Shown: positions 13,898 to 53,262 of the stretch, piece after piece
Layout of the letters: every line of letters starts with the position of its first letter
Position numbering within the stretch: position 1 is the first letter of the stretch
Source of the DNA: Eledone cirrhosa
Lineage: Eukaryota
DNA: 64,000 nucleotides
Reading direction: 5' to 3'
Assembly (NCBI GenBank): GCA_964016885.1
Contig: OZ024763.1
Location: forward strand, 17,670,001 to 17,734,000
Translations under genes and position numbers: made by a program
The notes under the pieces: model-generated
What the model was told of the DNA's origin: nothing
What the model saw: the letters and a program-made list of their open reading frames with translations, nothing else
The model's database searches: none

Positions 13898-14495
13898 ATA
13901 ATTGTTTCTACTTTAGGCACAAGGCCAGCAATTATCCCAGTGTATTACTGGTACTTTATATTTATCGACCCCCGTAAGGATGAAAGGCAAAGTTAACCTC
14001 GGCGGGATTTGAACTCAGACCATAAAGGGGCGTAACTCTATGCTGGAAAGCATAGAGTTACTCTACCGGTACTGCCAATTCACCACATAAACTTATAATT
14101 GTTTCTACGTTAGGCACAAGGCCAGCAATTATCCCAGTGTATTACTGGTACTTTATTTTATCGACCCCCGTAAGGATGAAAGGCAAAGTCAACCTCGGCG
14201 GGATTTGAACTCAGACCGTAAAGGGACGTAACTCTATGCTGGAAAGCATGCCGTCCGACCCTCTACCGATACTGCCAATGGTTTCTTATATAAGCACAAT
14301 GCCAGCAATTTTGGGGGAGTGGAAAGTTGATTAAATCAACCCCAGTGTATTACCGGTGCTTTATTTTATCGACCCCTTAAGGATGAAAGGCAAAGTTAAC
14401 CTCGGCGGGATTTGAACTCAGACAGTAAAGGGACGTAACTATATGCTGCAAAGCATGGTGTCTGACGCTCTACCGATACTGCCAATCCACCGCTC
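13898..14495 (-). mobile_element. Three head-to-tail SINE family A copies
   Basis: Tails begin near 13898, 14096 and 14281. Confidence 0.85.
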
Positions 14496-14660
14496 TAATA
14501 TAATAATAATAATGATTTCATCTATTGGCCACAAGGGCCGACATGTAGGGGACAATACAAAGACAGGGACAGTGGGGGGGGGCTTACAATAAGCTCGAGT
14601 AAAATTGCACAATAGCAAATCCAATTTAACAATGAAAATATGAAATAGACTATGTATAAA

Positions 14661-14997
14661 CATCATCATCATCATTTTACGTCCGCTTTTCCCTGCTTGC
14701 AAGGGTGGGACGGGAACTGATTCTGGCTTGATTTCTACAGCTGGATGCCCTTCCTAACACCAACCTCATTTACAGTGAGTGCTGGGTGCTTTTTTATCGT
14801 GGCACCTCCACAACCATTTTACAGTGGAATGATAGGGACCCCAGTCCCTATCATCTCATTTCTACAGCTGAGTAAACTGGAGCAATGTGAAATAAAGTGT
14901 CTTGCTCAAGGAAACAACACATCACCCGGTCTGAGAATTGAACTCACAACCTTTCGATTGCAAGGTAAATGCTCTAACCACTAAGCCATCTGCCTCC
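14661..14997 (-). mobile_element. tRNA-derived SINE family B with RTE-type tail
   Basis: Head TGGCTTAGTGG...GAGTTCAATTC, CCTTGAGCAAGACACTT (CORE/V-like), GGAAGGGCATCCAGC, (GAT)n tail. Confidence 0.85.
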
Positions 14998-15224
14998 AAA
15001 CATAACAAAATAAATTCCCCAATAGGGGTGTATGAACCACCCAGGGGTAACTCAAGTACACCCACCAATCCTGAACCACCCAACACTCCTAGGGCACCCG
15101 GGAGAGCACCTCCTCTCCTCCTCAAATTAACCATCCTACAGTCACATGGTCAGAGTAGGCCGACTCTCACCGGTCATTCTCGCCACATTCATCTGCATAA
15201 ATAGTCTTTGACAACACAATTACT

Positions 15225-15566: not shown

Positions 15567-15903
15567 ACAGTATATTATCAAATATACTATACATTCATTC
15601 ATACATCGCTATTTCAGAACACTGATACTAATTTCTAATTTTTGCTGGACCGGCAACTGCTCTGTTTAATCAGCTCCTAAACATCACTGGAATTCTATAA
15701 GAATCCAGCTTCTATAGGTCTGGATGGAAGCGAAGGGATATGCAATCTTGATAATCGCTAATGAGCGAGAAACAGCTGTCGGTTGCCTCCCTTTGTTTTT
15801 GCCGAGACTAAGTAAGTGACATAATCACTACTTTAAAACTCATAGCGAATGGTCTTCAAAATGTTTTTAAATAAAGGTACAGTATATTATCAAATATACT
15901 ATA
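15567..15903 (+). mobile_element. Retrozyme/Penelope-pLTR-like short element (312-bp unit plus 25-bp terminal redundancy)
   Basis: Identical ACAGTATATTATCAAATATACTATA at 15567-15591 and 15879-15903 encloses a non-coding unit with the hammerhead and a downstream AATAAA. Confidence 0.6.
15733..15793 (+). ncRNA. Type I hammerhead ribozyme, variant U3-A8 core
   Basis: Stem I GCAATC(15742-47)/GGTTGC(15781-86), extended by AAGGGA/TCCCTT across an internal loop. Core TTGATAA (15748-54), stem II TCGC-taatga-GCGA, GAAA, palindromic stem III ACAGCTGT, GUC triplet. Predicted cleavage after 15780. Confidence 0.75.
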
Positions 15904-16599
15904 TGCCCCCACTCCCTCCCACTGCAAAGTGGACATGTAGGCGCCACAGAAAAAAAGCACCCAGCACTCACTGTAAATGAGGTTGGTGTTGAGAAGGGCA
16001 TCCAGCTGTAGAAATCAAGCCAGAATCAGTTCCCGTCCCACCCTTGCAAGACATGGTCAGCCGACCAGCTATTGCCTACAACAGGACAACCCATCTAACC
16101 CATGCTAGCGTGGAAGAATGGACGTAAAACGGTGATGATGATGATACATTCATAAATAAGGTTTGTTTTTTTCACGAGATGTTAATTGTTGAAATATGGA
16201 ATTAAATGACTTTCTAATCATTATCTAAACATCATCAATGAATGCTGGTAATTTTATTTATGGAATATATCATGTAAACGTAGTTTAATAGAGAAAGGAA
16301 AAGTGAAAATTTAGATTGAGAAGAATGGAATGTAAAATAGGAAAATATATGGGGAAAGGAAGGGAATGGCAAGGACTCTAGTGACACAGAAAAATGGAGG
16401 GAGGCAGAGGATAGGGCTCTGGGCCTTAGGGTGTGGTGGTAAAGGGGCTGTGCCCTGCAGACAAGACTGCTAAAGTATTCCCGTGGACCAATGAATTAAT
16501 TTCTAAGTTCTTCATGAAATTGCCTCCACCACCACCACCATCAATAACAACAAAAAATAATAATTTTGTCCGAAAATTGTTAACCAGGCAAATAAAACA

Positions 16600-45231: not shown

Positions 45232-48200
45232 ATTCTCTCTCTATCACACTCCCTCTCTATCACATTCTCTCTCTATCACATTCTCTCTCTATCACATTCT
45301 CTCTCTATCACATTCTCTCTCTATCACATTCTCTCTCAATCACATTCTCTCTCAATCACATTCTCTCTCAATCACATTCTCTCTCTATCACATTCTCTCT
45401 CTATCACATTCTCTCTCAATCACATTCTCTCTCAATCACATTCTCTCTCTATCACATTCTCTCTCTATCACATTCTCTCTATCACATTCTCTCTCTATCA
45501 CATTCTCTCTCTATCACATTCTCTCTCTATCACCTTCTCTCTCTATCACACTCTCTCTCTATCACATTCTCTCTCTATCACATTCTCTCTCTATCACATT
45601 CTCTCTCAATCACATTCTCTCTCTATCACATTCTCTCTCTATCACATTCTCTCTCTATCACATTCTCTCAATCACATTCTCTCTCTATCACATTCTCTCT
45701 CTATCACATTCTTTCTCTATCACATTCTCTCTCAATCACTTCTCTTTCTATCACATTCTCTCTCAATCACTTCTCTCTCTATCACATTTTCTCTCTATCA
45801 CATTCTCTCTCTATCACATTCTTTCTCTATCACATTCTTTCTCTATCACATTCTCTCTCAATCACATTCTCTCTCTATCACATTCTCTCTCTGTCACATT
45901 CTCTCTCTATCACATTCTCTCTCTATCACATTCTCTCTCTATCACATTCTCTCTCTATCACATTCTCTCTCTATCACATTCTCTCTCTATCACATTCTCT
46001 CTCTATCACATTCTCTCTCAATCACATTCTCTCTCTATCACATTCTCTCTCTATCACATTCTCTCTATCACATTCTCTCTCTATCACATTCTCTCTCTGT
46101 CACATTCTCTCTATCACATTCTCTCTCTGTCACACTCTCTCTCTATCACATTCTCTCTCTATCACATTCTCTCTCTATCACATTCTTTCTCTTCCATTCT
46201 CTCTATCACATTCTCTCTCTATCACATTCTCTCTCTAACACATTCTCTCTCTATCACATTCTCTCTCTATCACATTCTCTCTCTATCACATTCTCTCTCT
46301 CTATCACATTCTCTCTCTATCACATTCTCTCTCTATCACATTCTCTCCCTATCACATTCTCTCTCTATCACATTGTCTCTCTATCACATTCTCTCTCTAT
46401 CACATTCTCTCTCTATCACATTCTCTCTCTATCACATTCTCTCTCTATCACATTCTCTCTCTATCGCATTCTCTCTCTATCGCATTCTCTCTATCACATT
46501 CTCTCTCTATCACATTCTCTCTCTATCACATTCTCTCTCTATCACATTCTCTCCCTATCACATTCTCTCTCTATCACATTGTCTCTCTATCACATTCTCT
46601 CTCTATCACATTCTCTCTCTATCACATTCTCTCTCTATCACATTCTCTCTCTATCGCATTCTCTCTCTATCACATTCTCTCTATCACATTCTCTCTCTAT
46701 CACATTCTCTCTCTATCACATTCTCTCTCTATCACATTCTCTCTCTATCACATTCTCTCTCTATCACATTCTCTCTATCACATTCTCTCTCTATCACATT
46801 CTCTCTCTATCACATTCTCTCTCTATCACATTCCCTCTCTATCACATTCTCTCTATCACATTCTCTCTCTATCACATTCTCTCTCTATCACATTCTCTCT
46901 ATCACATTCTCTCTCTATCACATTCTCTCTCTATCGCATTCTCTCTCTATCACATTCTCTCTCTATCAGATTCTCTCTCTATCACATTCTCTCTCTATCA
47001 CATTCTCTCTCTATCACATTCTCTCTCTCTCTCACATTCTCTCTCTATCACATTCTCTCTCTATCACATTCTTTCTCTTCCATTCTCTCTATCACATTCT
47101 CTCTCTTCCATTCTCTCTCTATCACATTCTCTCTCTATCACATTCTCTCTCTATCACATTCTCTCTCTATCACATTCTCTCTCTATCACATTCTCTCTCT
47201 ATCACATTCTCTCTCTCTCTCACATTCTCTCTCTATCACATTCTTTCTCTTCCATTCTCTCTATCACATTCTCTCTCTATCACATTCTCTCTATCACATT
47301 CTCTCTCTATCACATTCTCTCTCAATCACATTCTCTTTCTATCACACTCTCTCTCTATCACATTCTCTCTCTATCACATTCTCTCTCTATCACACTCACT
47401 CTCTATCACATTCTCTCTCTATCACATTCTCTCTCTATCACATTCTCTCTCTATCACATTCTCTCTCTATCACATTCTCTCTCTATCACATTCTCTCTCA
47501 ATCACATTCTCTCTCTATCACATTCTCTCTCAATCACATTCTCTCTCAATCACATTCTCTCTCTATCACATTCTCTCTCTATCACATTCTCTCTCAATCA
47601 CATTCTCTCTCAATCACATTCTCTCTCAATCACATTCTCTCTCTATCACATTCTCTCTCTATCACATTCTCTCTATCACATTCTCTCTCTATCACATTCT
47701 CTCTCTATCACATTCTCTCTCTATCACCTTCTCTCTCTATCACACTCTCTCTCTATCACATTCTCTCTCTATCACATTCTCTCTCTATCACATTCTCTCT
47801 CAATCACATTCTCTCTCTATCACATTCTCTCTCTATCACATTCTCTCTCTATCACATTCTCTCAATCACATTCTCTCTCTATCACATTCTCTCTCTATCA
47901 CATTCTCTCTCTATCACATTCTTTCTCTATCACATTCTCTCTCAATCACTTCTCTTTCTATCACATTCTCTCTCAATCACTTCTCTCTCTATCACATTTT
48001 CTCTCTATCACATTCTCTCTCTATCACATTCTTTCTCTATCACATTCTTTCTCTATCACATTCTCTCTCAATCACATTCTCTCTCTATCACATTCTCTCT
48101 CTGTCACATTCTCTCTCTATCACATTCTCTCTCTATCACATTCTCTCTCTATCACATTCTCTCTCTATCACATTCTCTCTCTATCACATTCTCTCTCTAT

Positions 48201-51200
48201 CACATTCTCTCTCTATCACATTCTCTCTCAATCACATTCTCTCTCTATCACATTCTCTCTCTATCACATTCTCTCTATCACATTCTCTCTCTATCACATT
48301 CTCTCTCTGTCACATTCTCTCTATCACATTCTCTCTCTGTCACACTCTCTCTCTATCACATTCTCTCTCTATCACATTCTCTCTCTATCACATTCTTTCT
48401 CTTCCATTCTCTCTATCACATTCTCTCTCTATCACATTCTCTCTATCACATTCTCTCTATCACATTCTCTCTCTAACACATTCTCTCTCTATCACATTCT
48501 CTCTCTATCACATTCTCTCTCTATCACATTCTCTCTCTCTATCACATTCTCTCTCTATCACATTCTCTCTCTATCACATTCTCTCCCTATCACATTCTCT
48601 CTCTATCACATTGTCTCTCTATCACATTCTCTCTCTATCACATTCTCTCTCTATCACATTCTCTCTCTATCACATTCTCTCTCTATCACATTCTCTCTCT
48701 ATCGCATTCTCTCTCTATCGCATTCTCTCTATCACATTCTCTCTCTATCACATTCTCTCTCTATCACATTCTCTCTCTATCACATTCTCTCCCTATCACA
48801 TTCTCTCTCTATCACATTGTCTCTCTATCACATTCTCTCTCTATCACATTCTCTCTCTATCACATTCTCTCTCTATCACATTCTCTCTCTATCGCATTCT
48901 CTCTCTATCGCATTCTCTCTCTATCACATTCTCTCTATCACATTCTCTCTCTATCACATTCTCTCTCTATCACATTCTCTCTCTATCACATTCTCTCTCT
49001 ATCACATTCTCTCTCTATCACATTCTCTCTATCACATTCTCTCTCTATCACATTCTCTCTCTATCACATTCTCTCTCTATCACATTCCCTCTCTATCACA
49101 TTCTCTCTATCACATTCTCTCTCTATCACATTCTCTCTCTATCACATTCTCTCTATCACATTCTCTCTCTATCACATTCTCTCTCTATCGCATTCTCTCT
49201 CTATCACATTCTCTCTCTATCAGATTCTCTCTCTATCACATTCTCTCTCTATCACATTCTCTCTCTATCACATTCTCTCTCTCTCTCACATTCTCTCTCT
49301 ATCACATTCTCTCTCTATCACATTCTTTCTCTTCCATTCTCTCTATCACATTCTCTCTCTTCCATTCTCTCTCTATCACATTCTCTCTCTATCACATTCT
49401 CTCTCTATCACATTCTCTCTCTATCACATTCTCTCTCTATCACATTCTCTCTCTCTCTCACATTCTCTCTCTATCACATTCTTTCTCTTCCATTCTCTCT
49501 ATCACATTCTCTCTCTATCACATTCTCTCTATCACATTCTCTCTCTATCACATTCTCTCTCAATCACATTCTCTTTCTATCACACTCTCTCTCTATCACA
49601 TTCTCTCTCTATCACATTCTCTCTCTATCACACTCACTCTCTATCACATTCTCTCTCTATCACATTCTCTCTCTATCACATTCTCTCTCTATCACATTCT
49701 CTCTCTATCACATTCTCTCTCAATCACATTCTCTCTCTATCACATTCTCTCTCAATCACATTCTCTCTCAATCACATTCTCTCTCTATCACATTCTCTCT
49801 CTATCACATTCTCTCTCAATCACATTCTCTCTCAATCACATTCTCTCTCAATCACATTCTCTCTCTATCACATTCTCTCTCTATCACATTCTCTCTATCA
49901 CATTCTCTCTCTATCACATTCTCTCTCAATCATTCTCTCTCTATCACATTCTCTCTCTATCACATTCTCTCTCTATCACATTCTCTCTCTATCACATTCT
50001 CTCTCTCTCTCACATTCTCTCTCTATCACATTCTCTCTCTATCACATTCTTTCTCTTCCATTCTCTCTATCACATTCTCTCTCTTCCATTCTCTCTCTAT
50101 CACATTCTCTCTCTATCACATTCTCTCTCTATCACATTCTCTCTCTATCACATTCTCTCTCTATCACATTCTCTCTCTCTCTCACATTCTCTCTCTATCA
50201 CATTCTTTCTCTTCCATTCTCTCTATCACATTCTCTCTCTATCACATTCTCTCTATCACATTCTCTCTCTATCACATTCTCTCTCAATCACATTCTCTTT
50301 CTATCACACTCTCTCTCTATCACATTCTCTCTCTATCACATTCTCTCTCTATCACACTCACTCTCTATCACATTCTCTCTCTATCACATTCTCTCTCTAT
50401 CACATTCTCTCTCTATCACATTCTCTCTCTATCACATTCTCTCTCTATCACATTCTCTCTCAATCACATTCTCTCTCTATCACATTCTCTCTCAATCACA
50501 TTCTCTCTCAATCACATTCTCTCTCTATCACATTCTCTCTCTATCACATTCTCTCTCAATCACATTCTCTCTCAATCACATTCTCTCTCAATCACATTCT
50601 CTCTCTATCACATTCTCTCTCTATCACATTCTCTCTATCACATTCTCTCTCTATCACATTCTCTCTCAATCATTCTCTCTCTATCACATTCTCTCTCTAT
50701 CACATTCTCTCTCTATCACATTCTCTCTCTATCACATTCTCTCTCAATCACATTCTCTCTCTATCACATTCTCTCTCTATCACATTCTCTCTCTATCACA
50801 TTCTCTTCTATCACACTCTCTCTCTATCACATTCTCTCTCTATCACATTCTCTCTCTATCACATTCTCTCTCTATCACATTCTTTCTCTATCACATTCTT
50901 TCTCTATCACATTCTCTCTCAATCACATTCTCTCTCTCTCACATTCTCTCTCTATCACATTCTCTCTCTATCACATTCTCTCTCTATCACATTCTCTCTC
51001 TATCACATTCTTTCTCTATCACATTCTCTCTCTATCACATTCTCTCTCTATCACATTCTCTCTCTATCACATTCTTTCTCTATCACATTCTCTCTCTATC
51101 ACATTCTCTCTCTATCACATTCTCTCTCTATCACATTCTCTCTCTATCACATTCTCTCTCAATCACATTCTCTCTCTATCACATTCTCTCTCTATCACAT

Positions 51201-53262
51201 TCTCTCTCTATCACATTCTCTCTCTATCACATTCTCTTTCTATCACATTCTCTCTCTATCACATTCTCTCTCTATCACATTCTCTCTCTATCACATTCTC
51301 TCTCTATCAGATTCTCTCTCTATCACATTCTCTCTCTATCACATTCTCTCTCTATCACATTCTCTCTCTCTCTCACATTCTCTCTGTATCACATTCTCTC
51401 TCTATCACATTCTCTCTCTATCACATTCTTTCTCTTCCATTCTCTCTATCACATTCTCTCTCTTCCATTCTCTCTCTATCACATTCTCTCTCTATCACAT
51501 TCTCTCTCTATCACATTCTCTCTCTATCACATTCTCTCTCTATCACATTCTCTCTCTCTCTCTCACATTCTCTCTCTATCACATTCTTTCTCTTCCATTC
51601 TCTCTATCACATTCTCTCTCTATCACATTCTCTCTATCACATTCTCTCTCTATCACATTCTCTCTCAATCACATTCTCTTTCTATCACACTCTCTCTCTA
51701 TCACATTCTCTCTCTATCACATTCTCTCTCTATCACACTCCCTCTCTATCACATTCTCTATCACATTCTCTCTCTATCACATTCTCTCTCTATCACATTC
51801 TCTCTCTATCACATTCTCTCTCTATCACATTCTCTCTCTATCACATTCTCTCTCTATCACATTCTCTCTCTATCACATTCTCTCTCAATCACATTCTCTC
51901 TCAATCACATTCTCTCTCAATCACATTCTCTCTCTATCACATTCTCTCTCTATCACATTCTCTCTATCACATTCTCTCTCTATCACATTCTCTCTCAATC
52001 ATTCTCTCTCTATCACATTCTCTCTCTATCACATTCTCTCTCTATCACATTCTCTCTCTATCACATTCTCTCTCTATCACATTCTCTCTCAATCACATTC
52101 TCTCTCTATCACATTCTCTCTCTATCACATTCTCTCTCTATCACACTCTCTCTCTATCACATTCTCTCTCTATCACATTCTCTCTCTATCACATTCTCTC
52201 TCTATCACATTCTCTCTCTATCACATTCTTTCTCTATCACATTCTTTCTCTATCACATTCTCTCTCAATCACATTCTCTCTCTCTCACATTCTCTCTCTA
52301 TCACATTCTCTCTCTATCACATTCTCTCTCTATCACATTCTCTCTCTATCACATTCTTTCTCTATCACATTCTCTCTCTATCACATTCTCTCTCTATCAC
52401 ATTCTTTCTCTATCACATTCTCTCTCTATCACATTCTCTCTCTATCACATTCTCTCTCTATCACATTCTCTCTCTATCACATTCTCTCTCTATCACACTC
52501 TCTCTCTATCACATTCTCTCTCTATCACATTCTCTCTCTATCACATTCTCTCTCTATCACATTCTCTCTCTATCACATTCTCTCTCTATCACATTCTCTC
52601 TCTATCACACTCTCTCTCTATCACACTCTCTCTCTATCACATTCTCTCTCAATCACTTCTCTCTCTATCACATTCTCTCTCTATCACATTCTCTCTCTAT
52701 CACATTCTCTCTCTATCACATTCTCTCTCTATCACATTCTCTCTCTATCACACTCTCTCTCTATCACATTCTCTCTCTATCACATTCTCTCTCTATCACA
52801 TTCTCTCTCTATCACATTCTTTCTCTATCACATTCTTTCTCTATCACATTCTCTCTCAATCACATTCTCTCTCTCTCACATTCTCTCTCTATCACATTCT
52901 CTCTCTATCACATTCTCTCTCTATCACATTCTCTCTCTATCACATTCTTTCTCTATCACATTCTCTCTCTATCACATTCTCTCTCTATCACATTCTTTCT
53001 CTATCACATTCTTTCTCTATCACATTCTCTCTCTATCACATTCTCTCTCTATCACATTCTCTCTCAATCACATTCTCTCTCTATCACATTCTCTCTCTAT
53101 CACATTCTCTCTCTATCACATTCTCTCTCTATCACATTCTCTCTCTATCACACTCTCTCTCTATCACATTCTCTCTCTATCACATTCTCTCTCTATCACA
53201 TTCTCTCTCTATCACATTCTCTCTCTATCACATTCTCTCTCTATCACATTCTCTCTCTATCC
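45232..53262. repeat. 8-kb satellite of 16-bp unit ATCACATTCTCTCTCT
   Basis: Period 16 with 14-bp variants; explains the ~2700-aa pseudo-ORFs. Confidence 0.97.

Follow-up and report, generated by a model that had tools for sequence, protein, structure and literature searches.

In the openly readable literature, animal non-LTR retrozymes are described as tandem repeats of ~300 bp with low GC content that carry type I hammerhead ribozymes, and Penelope-like elements have been proposed as their helpers (PMC7229834; 10.64898/2026.07.22.740005). They are expressed as circles in coral, mussel and axolotl (PMC7229834; 10.64898/2026.07.22.740005), and circles have been proposed as the templates of animal retrozymes (PMC7229834). 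Inverted 5΄ copies, a 30–40-bp tail and a bias toward microsatellites have been described for Penelope-like elements, the tail being the stretch between two internal reverse-transcription start sites and called unique to these elements (PMC11167929). Variant cores have also been reported: ~1,300 Schistosoma Penelope ribozymes carry U3–A8 (PMC4209133), and both the U3–A8 covariation and U10.1·U11.1 had already been found in nature by Perreault et al. (2011, PMC3088659), with U·U as the best-tolerated mismatch at the base of stem II (PMC3088659). A pairing of U1.7 with the final A of loop II has been proposed (PMC11875169), the action of hammerheads as dimers is reviewed in PMC6765202, and the giant squid genome paper gives 235 Hammerhead_1 matches.

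The window analyzed here, a stretch of 64,000 nucleotides from the genome of Eledone cirrhosa, contains one copy of a repeat of this kind (Table 1). We consider it probable, from comparison of its relatives, that this is an old, inactive copy of a 312–316-bp element: multimeric transcripts would be cut into units by their type I hammerhead, predicted to act as a dimer, the units would likely circularize, and Penelope-like enzymes supplied in trans would likely reverse-transcribe the RNA into TA repeats, with priming at two internal sites 34 nt apart. Directly observed are the family and its series of subfamilies, a core that is conserved while the helices change with compensation, the coupled switches of the 3-8 pair, the insertion anatomy, the tandem arrays of a young family (E) and elements with reverse transcriptase (RT) and GIY-YIG domains in the genome; from these we infer transcription, cleavage, circularization, the two internal priming sites and the identity of the helper.

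Table 1. Features of the element copy in the window (positions of the window)
Feature	Position	Strand
One 312-bp period of the element, subfamily A2, 36% GC, non-coding	15567..15878	+
Putative ~34-nt tail between the two usual 3΄ ends, approximate, as read in the first unit	15600..15631	+
Outer stem I, 5΄ strand, and loop 1	15717..15741	+
Stem I proximal 5΄ strand, 6 bp (15742–47 with 15781–86)	15742..15747	+
Core U3-U4-G5-A6-U7-A8-A9 (UUGAUAA), U3–A8 variant	15748..15754	+
Stem II (15755–58 with 15765–68) and 6-nt loop UAAUGA	15755..15768	+
G12-A13-A14-A15.1 (GAAA, 15769–72), palindromic stem III, GUC	15769..15780	+
Stem I, 3΄ strand	15781..15808	+
Start of the next unit, 25-bp redundancy	15879..15903	+

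A previous sequence-only reading had described a type I hammerhead with a UUGAUAA core, GAAA, a palindromic stem III and a GUC site, and we found each of these in its place. The stem III palindrome ACAGCUGU occupies 15772–79, with C17 of the GUC at 15780, and the ribozyme is predicted to cut after 15780. The unit had also been described as bounded by identical 25-bp direct repeats. The 25-mers at 15567–15591 and 15879–15903 are indeed identical and spaced 312 bp apart, and the bases flanking each repeat differ, but the 25 bp are the remnant of a longer overlap in the family. A target-site duplication was rejected as their origin, the 25-mer being internal family sequence. No ORF of at least 120 aa overlaps the 312-bp unit. 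The 86-nt ribozyme region folds with z = –2.57, and 4 of 200 shuffled sequences fold equally well. Stems I and II form in the predicted monomer fold (P 0.92–1.0) and stem III does not (P 0.01); the two-molecule prediction is a double hammerhead (–64.7 kcal/mol versus 2 × –27.2 for two monomers), and the predicted dimer is ~10 kcal/mol more stable than the pair of monomers. Folded as circles, the units of the window copy and of A, B and E each beat 100/100 shuffles, and since the minus strands fold about equally well, these folds do not show the strand.

The window copy belongs to subfamily A2, whose members differ from their majority by 5.7% on average, and differs from it at 14 of 296 positions. 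Five of the 14 differences lie around outer stem I (15717, 15722, 15724, 15725 and 15726), and another replaces C10.1 by U. Also among them is C instead of U at position 1.7 (15787), which reads U in 29 of 30 loci and in every one of the 13 subfamily majorities. The U10.1–A11.1 pair that had been read as part of the hammerhead is seen in this copy, as a minority state (U at 10.1 in 3 of 30 loci, C in 25), whereas the majority of the subfamily, and the family at the base of stem II, have C·A. The copy comprises 1.08 units with a single ribozyme, rather than the two complete tandem ribozymes of a non-LTR retrozyme, and fits the 'monomer derivative' class of 10.64898/2026.07.22.740005. It ends ~9 nt before the first usual 3΄ end of the family, has neither the usual TA run nor an inverted arm, and abuts an abundant repeat at ~15916 (15916–16157). 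Most likely the window copy is an old, dead insertion; because of its one ribozyme and private damage, it would be a poor assay target and could not free a circle on its own. The element lies among abundant short repeats (14341–14516, 14661–15004 and 15916–16157), one of them with a weak tRNA-like match on the minus strand (14931–14988). This match suggests tRNA-derived SINEs, and the flanking repeats may resemble octopod SINEs. Elsewhere in the window, ~6 kb (46001–52000) with a GC skew near –1 and almost no G on the plus strand is probably a C/T-rich simple-repeat array.

The 312-bp unit is dispersed through the 3.0-Gb genome: of 3,346 candidates, 40 were scored, and these gave 125 matches. 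Unit lengths are 312–316 bp across the lineage. Both U3 and A8 were present in all 30 fetched loci, two of which overlap, and in 56/56 matches to a pattern that left both positions free. A GIY-YIG search exposed a sister family with the same unit and the canonical CUGAUGA core. We then counted the states of the 3-8 slot over the whole genome, using four patterns tied to a constant 3΄ motif, and obtained 1,421 C3–G8, 402 U3–A8, 48 C3·A8 and 31 U3·G8. The lineage thus has at least 1,902 ribozyme-bearing copies, of which 79 have an unpaired 3-8 state versus 678 expected under independence, these being counts of copies and not of independent events. U3–A8 is a subfamily state and not a peculiarity of the window copy. 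A standard CUGANGA search had been expected to miss such ribozymes, and it overlooks about one-fifth of the copies in the 3-8 slot (402/1,902); Rfam likewise gave no hammerhead at the window unit at E ≤ 10.

Eighty further regions from one chromosome were fetched, mostly in list order from the pattern-count matches with duplicates skipped, the last batch being partly picked for variety; a near-full unit was found in 125 of 141 loci. The unit has the size and composition of retrozymes (150–450 bp, non-coding, <45% GC), and the ribozyme has their form (type I, with a 6-bp stem I, a 4-bp stem II and a short palindromic stem III). In older subfamilies, two tandem ribozymes were detected by profile search in only 9 of 138 loci, and L121 and L132 were the only loci with two confirmed intact U–A core motifs approximately one unit apart. 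Together with the family E arrays, these two loci supply the members with two or more complete tandem ribozymes, and the lineage appears to work like a non-LTR retrozyme family and counts as one through its tandem members. The retrozyme interpretation first made from the window copy therefore holds at the level of the lineage, with its dispersed family and the exact 312-bp multimers of family E. At L017:1817–2515, amplification of the 36–40-nt unit end has produced a tandem minisatellite of ~19 copies.

Family E, a young sister family, has a 312-bp unit that is 69% identical to the window unit, and its ribozyme combines a C3–G8 core and a GUA site with a U·U mismatch at 10.1/11.1 (22 bits on Rfam HH9, cut-off 52). 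There are 594 motif matches genome-wide, and the 100 listed are all C–G. The tandem copies that the sequence-only reading had proposed to seek genome-wide were found here. In 20 arrays chosen from the best matches, arms contain up to 22 exact 312-bp units, and the within-family difference is 0.36% (L205:1400-2070 and L217–L236, e.g. C2:381021958-381028767). Among 33 arms, 16 end at unit position 305–312, 13 at 30–37 and 4 have no resolved end. Moreover, in all 11 loci with both opposed arms resolved, one arm ends at 305–312 and the other at 30–37, the two sites lying 34 nt apart, which suggests twin priming. Run-off at the cleavage site was rejected as a source of the 5΄ starts, which are scattered (1 of 33 arms within 2 nt of the site).

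In five E arrays, all full units scored share a variant private to the array, in two of them across both opposed arms, as repeated copying of one monomer would produce. Of the 20, four (L217, L220, L221 and L223) are mosaics of recurring variants, which a single monomer circle does not explain. These mosaics would fit a template of uncut or partly cut multimeric linear RNA used by the same element and helper, with cleavage selected only to free the RNA from host transcripts and circles as a by-product. The scattered 5΄ starts fit such a template as well as a circle, and a Penelope-like protein used mainly unprocessed RNA in vitro (PMC11167929). However, where five young arrays share a private variant among all units scored, in two cases over both opposed arms, one monomer must have been copied repeatedly, and we regard a linear multimeric template as unlikely. 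Under the preferred reading, in which the copied monomer would be a circle, family E is the best target for finding circles and new insertions.

We further analyzed the anatomy of the insertions. A TA run lies within 90 nt downstream of 117 out of 134 copies, an inverted piece lies upstream (5΄) in 68 of the 134, and the 3΄ ends cluster at +13 (34/134) and +47 (15/134), ~34 nt apart. Because of these clusters and the tail model of PMC11167929, we placed the tail in the window copy as given in Table 1; its ends would be the two reverse-transcription start sites. The lineage shows two 3΄ ends 30–40 nt apart, an AT-rich target and an inverted 5΄-truncated arm, as Penelope-type insertions do, and was likely moved by Penelope-like elements. 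Such elements occur in the genome: GIY-YIG loci are many, ORFs with both RT and GIY-YIG were present in three of four proteins scanned, and one RT + GIY-YIG family has its own minimal U3–A8 ribozyme, twice, 5 kb apart in L062. For a Penelope protein from this genome, the named relatives were mostly from bivalves or filed under invertebrate symbionts, with no cephalopod name among the 120 listed. Two locus groups combine Penelope-type ORFs with minimal U3–A8 hammerhead motifs (L062, L063, L067, L071, L073, L074 and L045; L031 and L055), L062 having a 938-aa open frame.

The same anatomy would be left by solo or truncated pseudo-LTRs of an autonomous Penelope-like element, in place of an independent non-autonomous one. 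Xenopus retrozymes derive from pseudo-LTRs (10.64898/2026.07.22.740005), and the ORF search covered a sample of loci. Within that sample, the unit was the terminal repeat of a Penelope ORF in none of 141 loci and flanked an RT + GIY-YIG ORF in none of 45 overlapping family E loci, nor was a helper element sharing the unit sequence found among them; Penelope ORF fragments nearby in five of the 141 loci were judged separate by their coordinates. The unit also repeats on itself at both ends, and the autonomous elements examined bear different, minimal ribozymes. A pseudo-LTR origin is therefore very improbable, and we retain the non-autonomous element. One candidate pseudo-LTR, at the GIY-YIG locus L032, was rejected as a short element beyond the end of the L032 element itself and a TA run.

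Other hammerheads were also observed. Family C (L072:8300-9901, L055 and L127) is a hammerhead repeat with C3–G8, U·U at the base of stem II, a UAACAA loop and U1.7, in three tandem copies ~500 bp apart with TA runs between them. A fold-back element in TA runs (L078:4130-4330, L071:8005-8210 and L067:1180-1315) has ~26 nt of ribozyme sequence in common with family E; this match was dropped as a second lead, the element being another short fold-back. Canonical-core motifs unrelated to the unit lie at L061:3507, L068:6986 and L004:2505-2575, the last scoring 33.7 bits on Rfam HH9.

The history of the 3-8 pair was reconstructed from a tree of 87 rows, from which columns 3 and 8 were masked, near-identical copies were thinned at random and the family E copy was excluded. 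This tree needs two changes of the 3-8 state, and a single U–A clade is rejected (AU test, P = 5e-8). With family E added three changes are needed, a count resting on the placement of E, which is a long branch, and the trees are unrooted. The lineage switched its 3-8 pair at least twice while keeping the fold. By a 3-8-masked tree, 124 copies were grouped into 13 subfamilies. Among their majorities, none of 11 core positions varies and U1.7 and a loop-1 U are invariant, whereas 50 of 62 helix positions vary, compared with 50 of 205 elsewhere. Among 16 representatives (3-8 pair C–G in eight and U–A in eight), 15 of 21 pairs show two-sided changes versus 2–6 with the partners slid, a control that is not a probability because the structure was drawn from these same, related sequences; row C of the alignment is one column off, which lowers the pairing scores. 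All six pairs of the stem I proximal strand show two-sided changes. The stems proposed from the single copy are conserved in its homologs. A-to-I editing was rejected as a source of the fast helix change, with no A>G excess among E variants (4/64, common A/G site 179 excluded).

The base of stem II differs among subfamilies, being C·A (A and F), A·A (G–I), A–U, U·U or G–C (N and D), and subfamily D pairs U3–A8 with the canonical G10.1–C11.1. Cleavage should be slower where 10.1/11.1 is C·A or A·A. The coupling, the tree, the invariant core and the compensated helices support the idea that selection for ribozyme activity acts on the 3-8 pair, which had been proposed from the window copy and, as far as these sequences indicate, holds for the lineage. 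Coupled switches with the fold kept suggest that self-cutting is needed when the element is copied, likely by Penelope-type enzymes and probably from an RNA circle. That the ribozyme of the U–A subfamilies is crippled, that these subfamilies spread passively and that founder effects produced the coupling, we consider highly implausible: the larger U–A clade is mismatched at 10.1/11.1, multimers are few and independent switches number only two or three, but an unpaired 3-8 state is fixed in none of the subfamily majorities, the core and U1.7 are invariant through at least seven U–A subfamilies whose helices change with compensation, and subfamily D joins U–A to a canonical G10.1–C11.1.

Several observations count against our explanation. 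The U–A subfamilies A and F–I carry C·A or A·A at 10.1/11.1, some E arrays are mosaics, and tandem ribozymes are rare in older subfamilies. Hammerhead cleavage was also dispensable for Penelope-type mobility in vitro, where a lizard Penelope-like element inserts without it (PMC11167929), and eight of nine Xenopus retrozyme dimers did not cleave (10.64898/2026.07.22.740005). A stronger statement can be made only tentatively, and we hold it to be somewhat less probable than its opposite: the lineage would record that ribozyme catalysis is required for Penelope-driven spread of RNA circles, positions 3 and 8 would have flipped from C–G to U–A and returned only together, ribozymes bearing C·A or A·A at the base of stem II would still have propagated, and family E would be active and twin-prime from two sites 34 nt apart while rolling round one 312-nt circle.

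In openly readable texts, we found neither a description of this family nor another case of a single element lineage that switches its 3-8 pair; supplements may list cephalopod families. The core variant is not new; what the lineage adds is its subfamily series and the young family. The lineage offers genomic evidence of selection on a catalytic core and a panel of ~14 natural ribozyme variants, and with the series and family E it can be tested what cleavage and circular templates contribute to Penelope-type mobility. As in the metazoan non-LTR retrozymes described in PMC7229834 and 10.64898/2026.07.22.740005, the unit is ~300 bp, non-coding and low in GC with a type I hammerhead, canonical in those elements, and ranges from monomers to multimers beside co-existing Penelope-like elements; the U·U mismatch at 10.1/11.1 likewise recurs in axolotl HHR_Amex2, a non-LTR retrozyme. 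Unlike these retrozymes, part of the lineage has U3–A8 with repeated switching, C·A and A·A occur at 10.1/11.1, the window copy is a monomer, and the lineage is known here from DNA. The minimal hammerheads of Penelope pseudo-LTRs (PMC4209133) share the U3–A8 variant, the palindromic stem III and dimer action, and the tail, inverted arms and microsatellite targets of Penelope-like elements match those of the lineage. In contrast to the minimal form (stem II of 7–8 bp, stem I of 4–5 bp and an extra base after A9), the lineage has a 6-bp stem I, a 4-bp stem II, U1.7 and no attached ORF. With the natural core-variant hammerheads of PMC3088659 it has U3–A8 and U10.1·U11.1 in common, and here both states of the pair occur in the subfamily series of one lineage.
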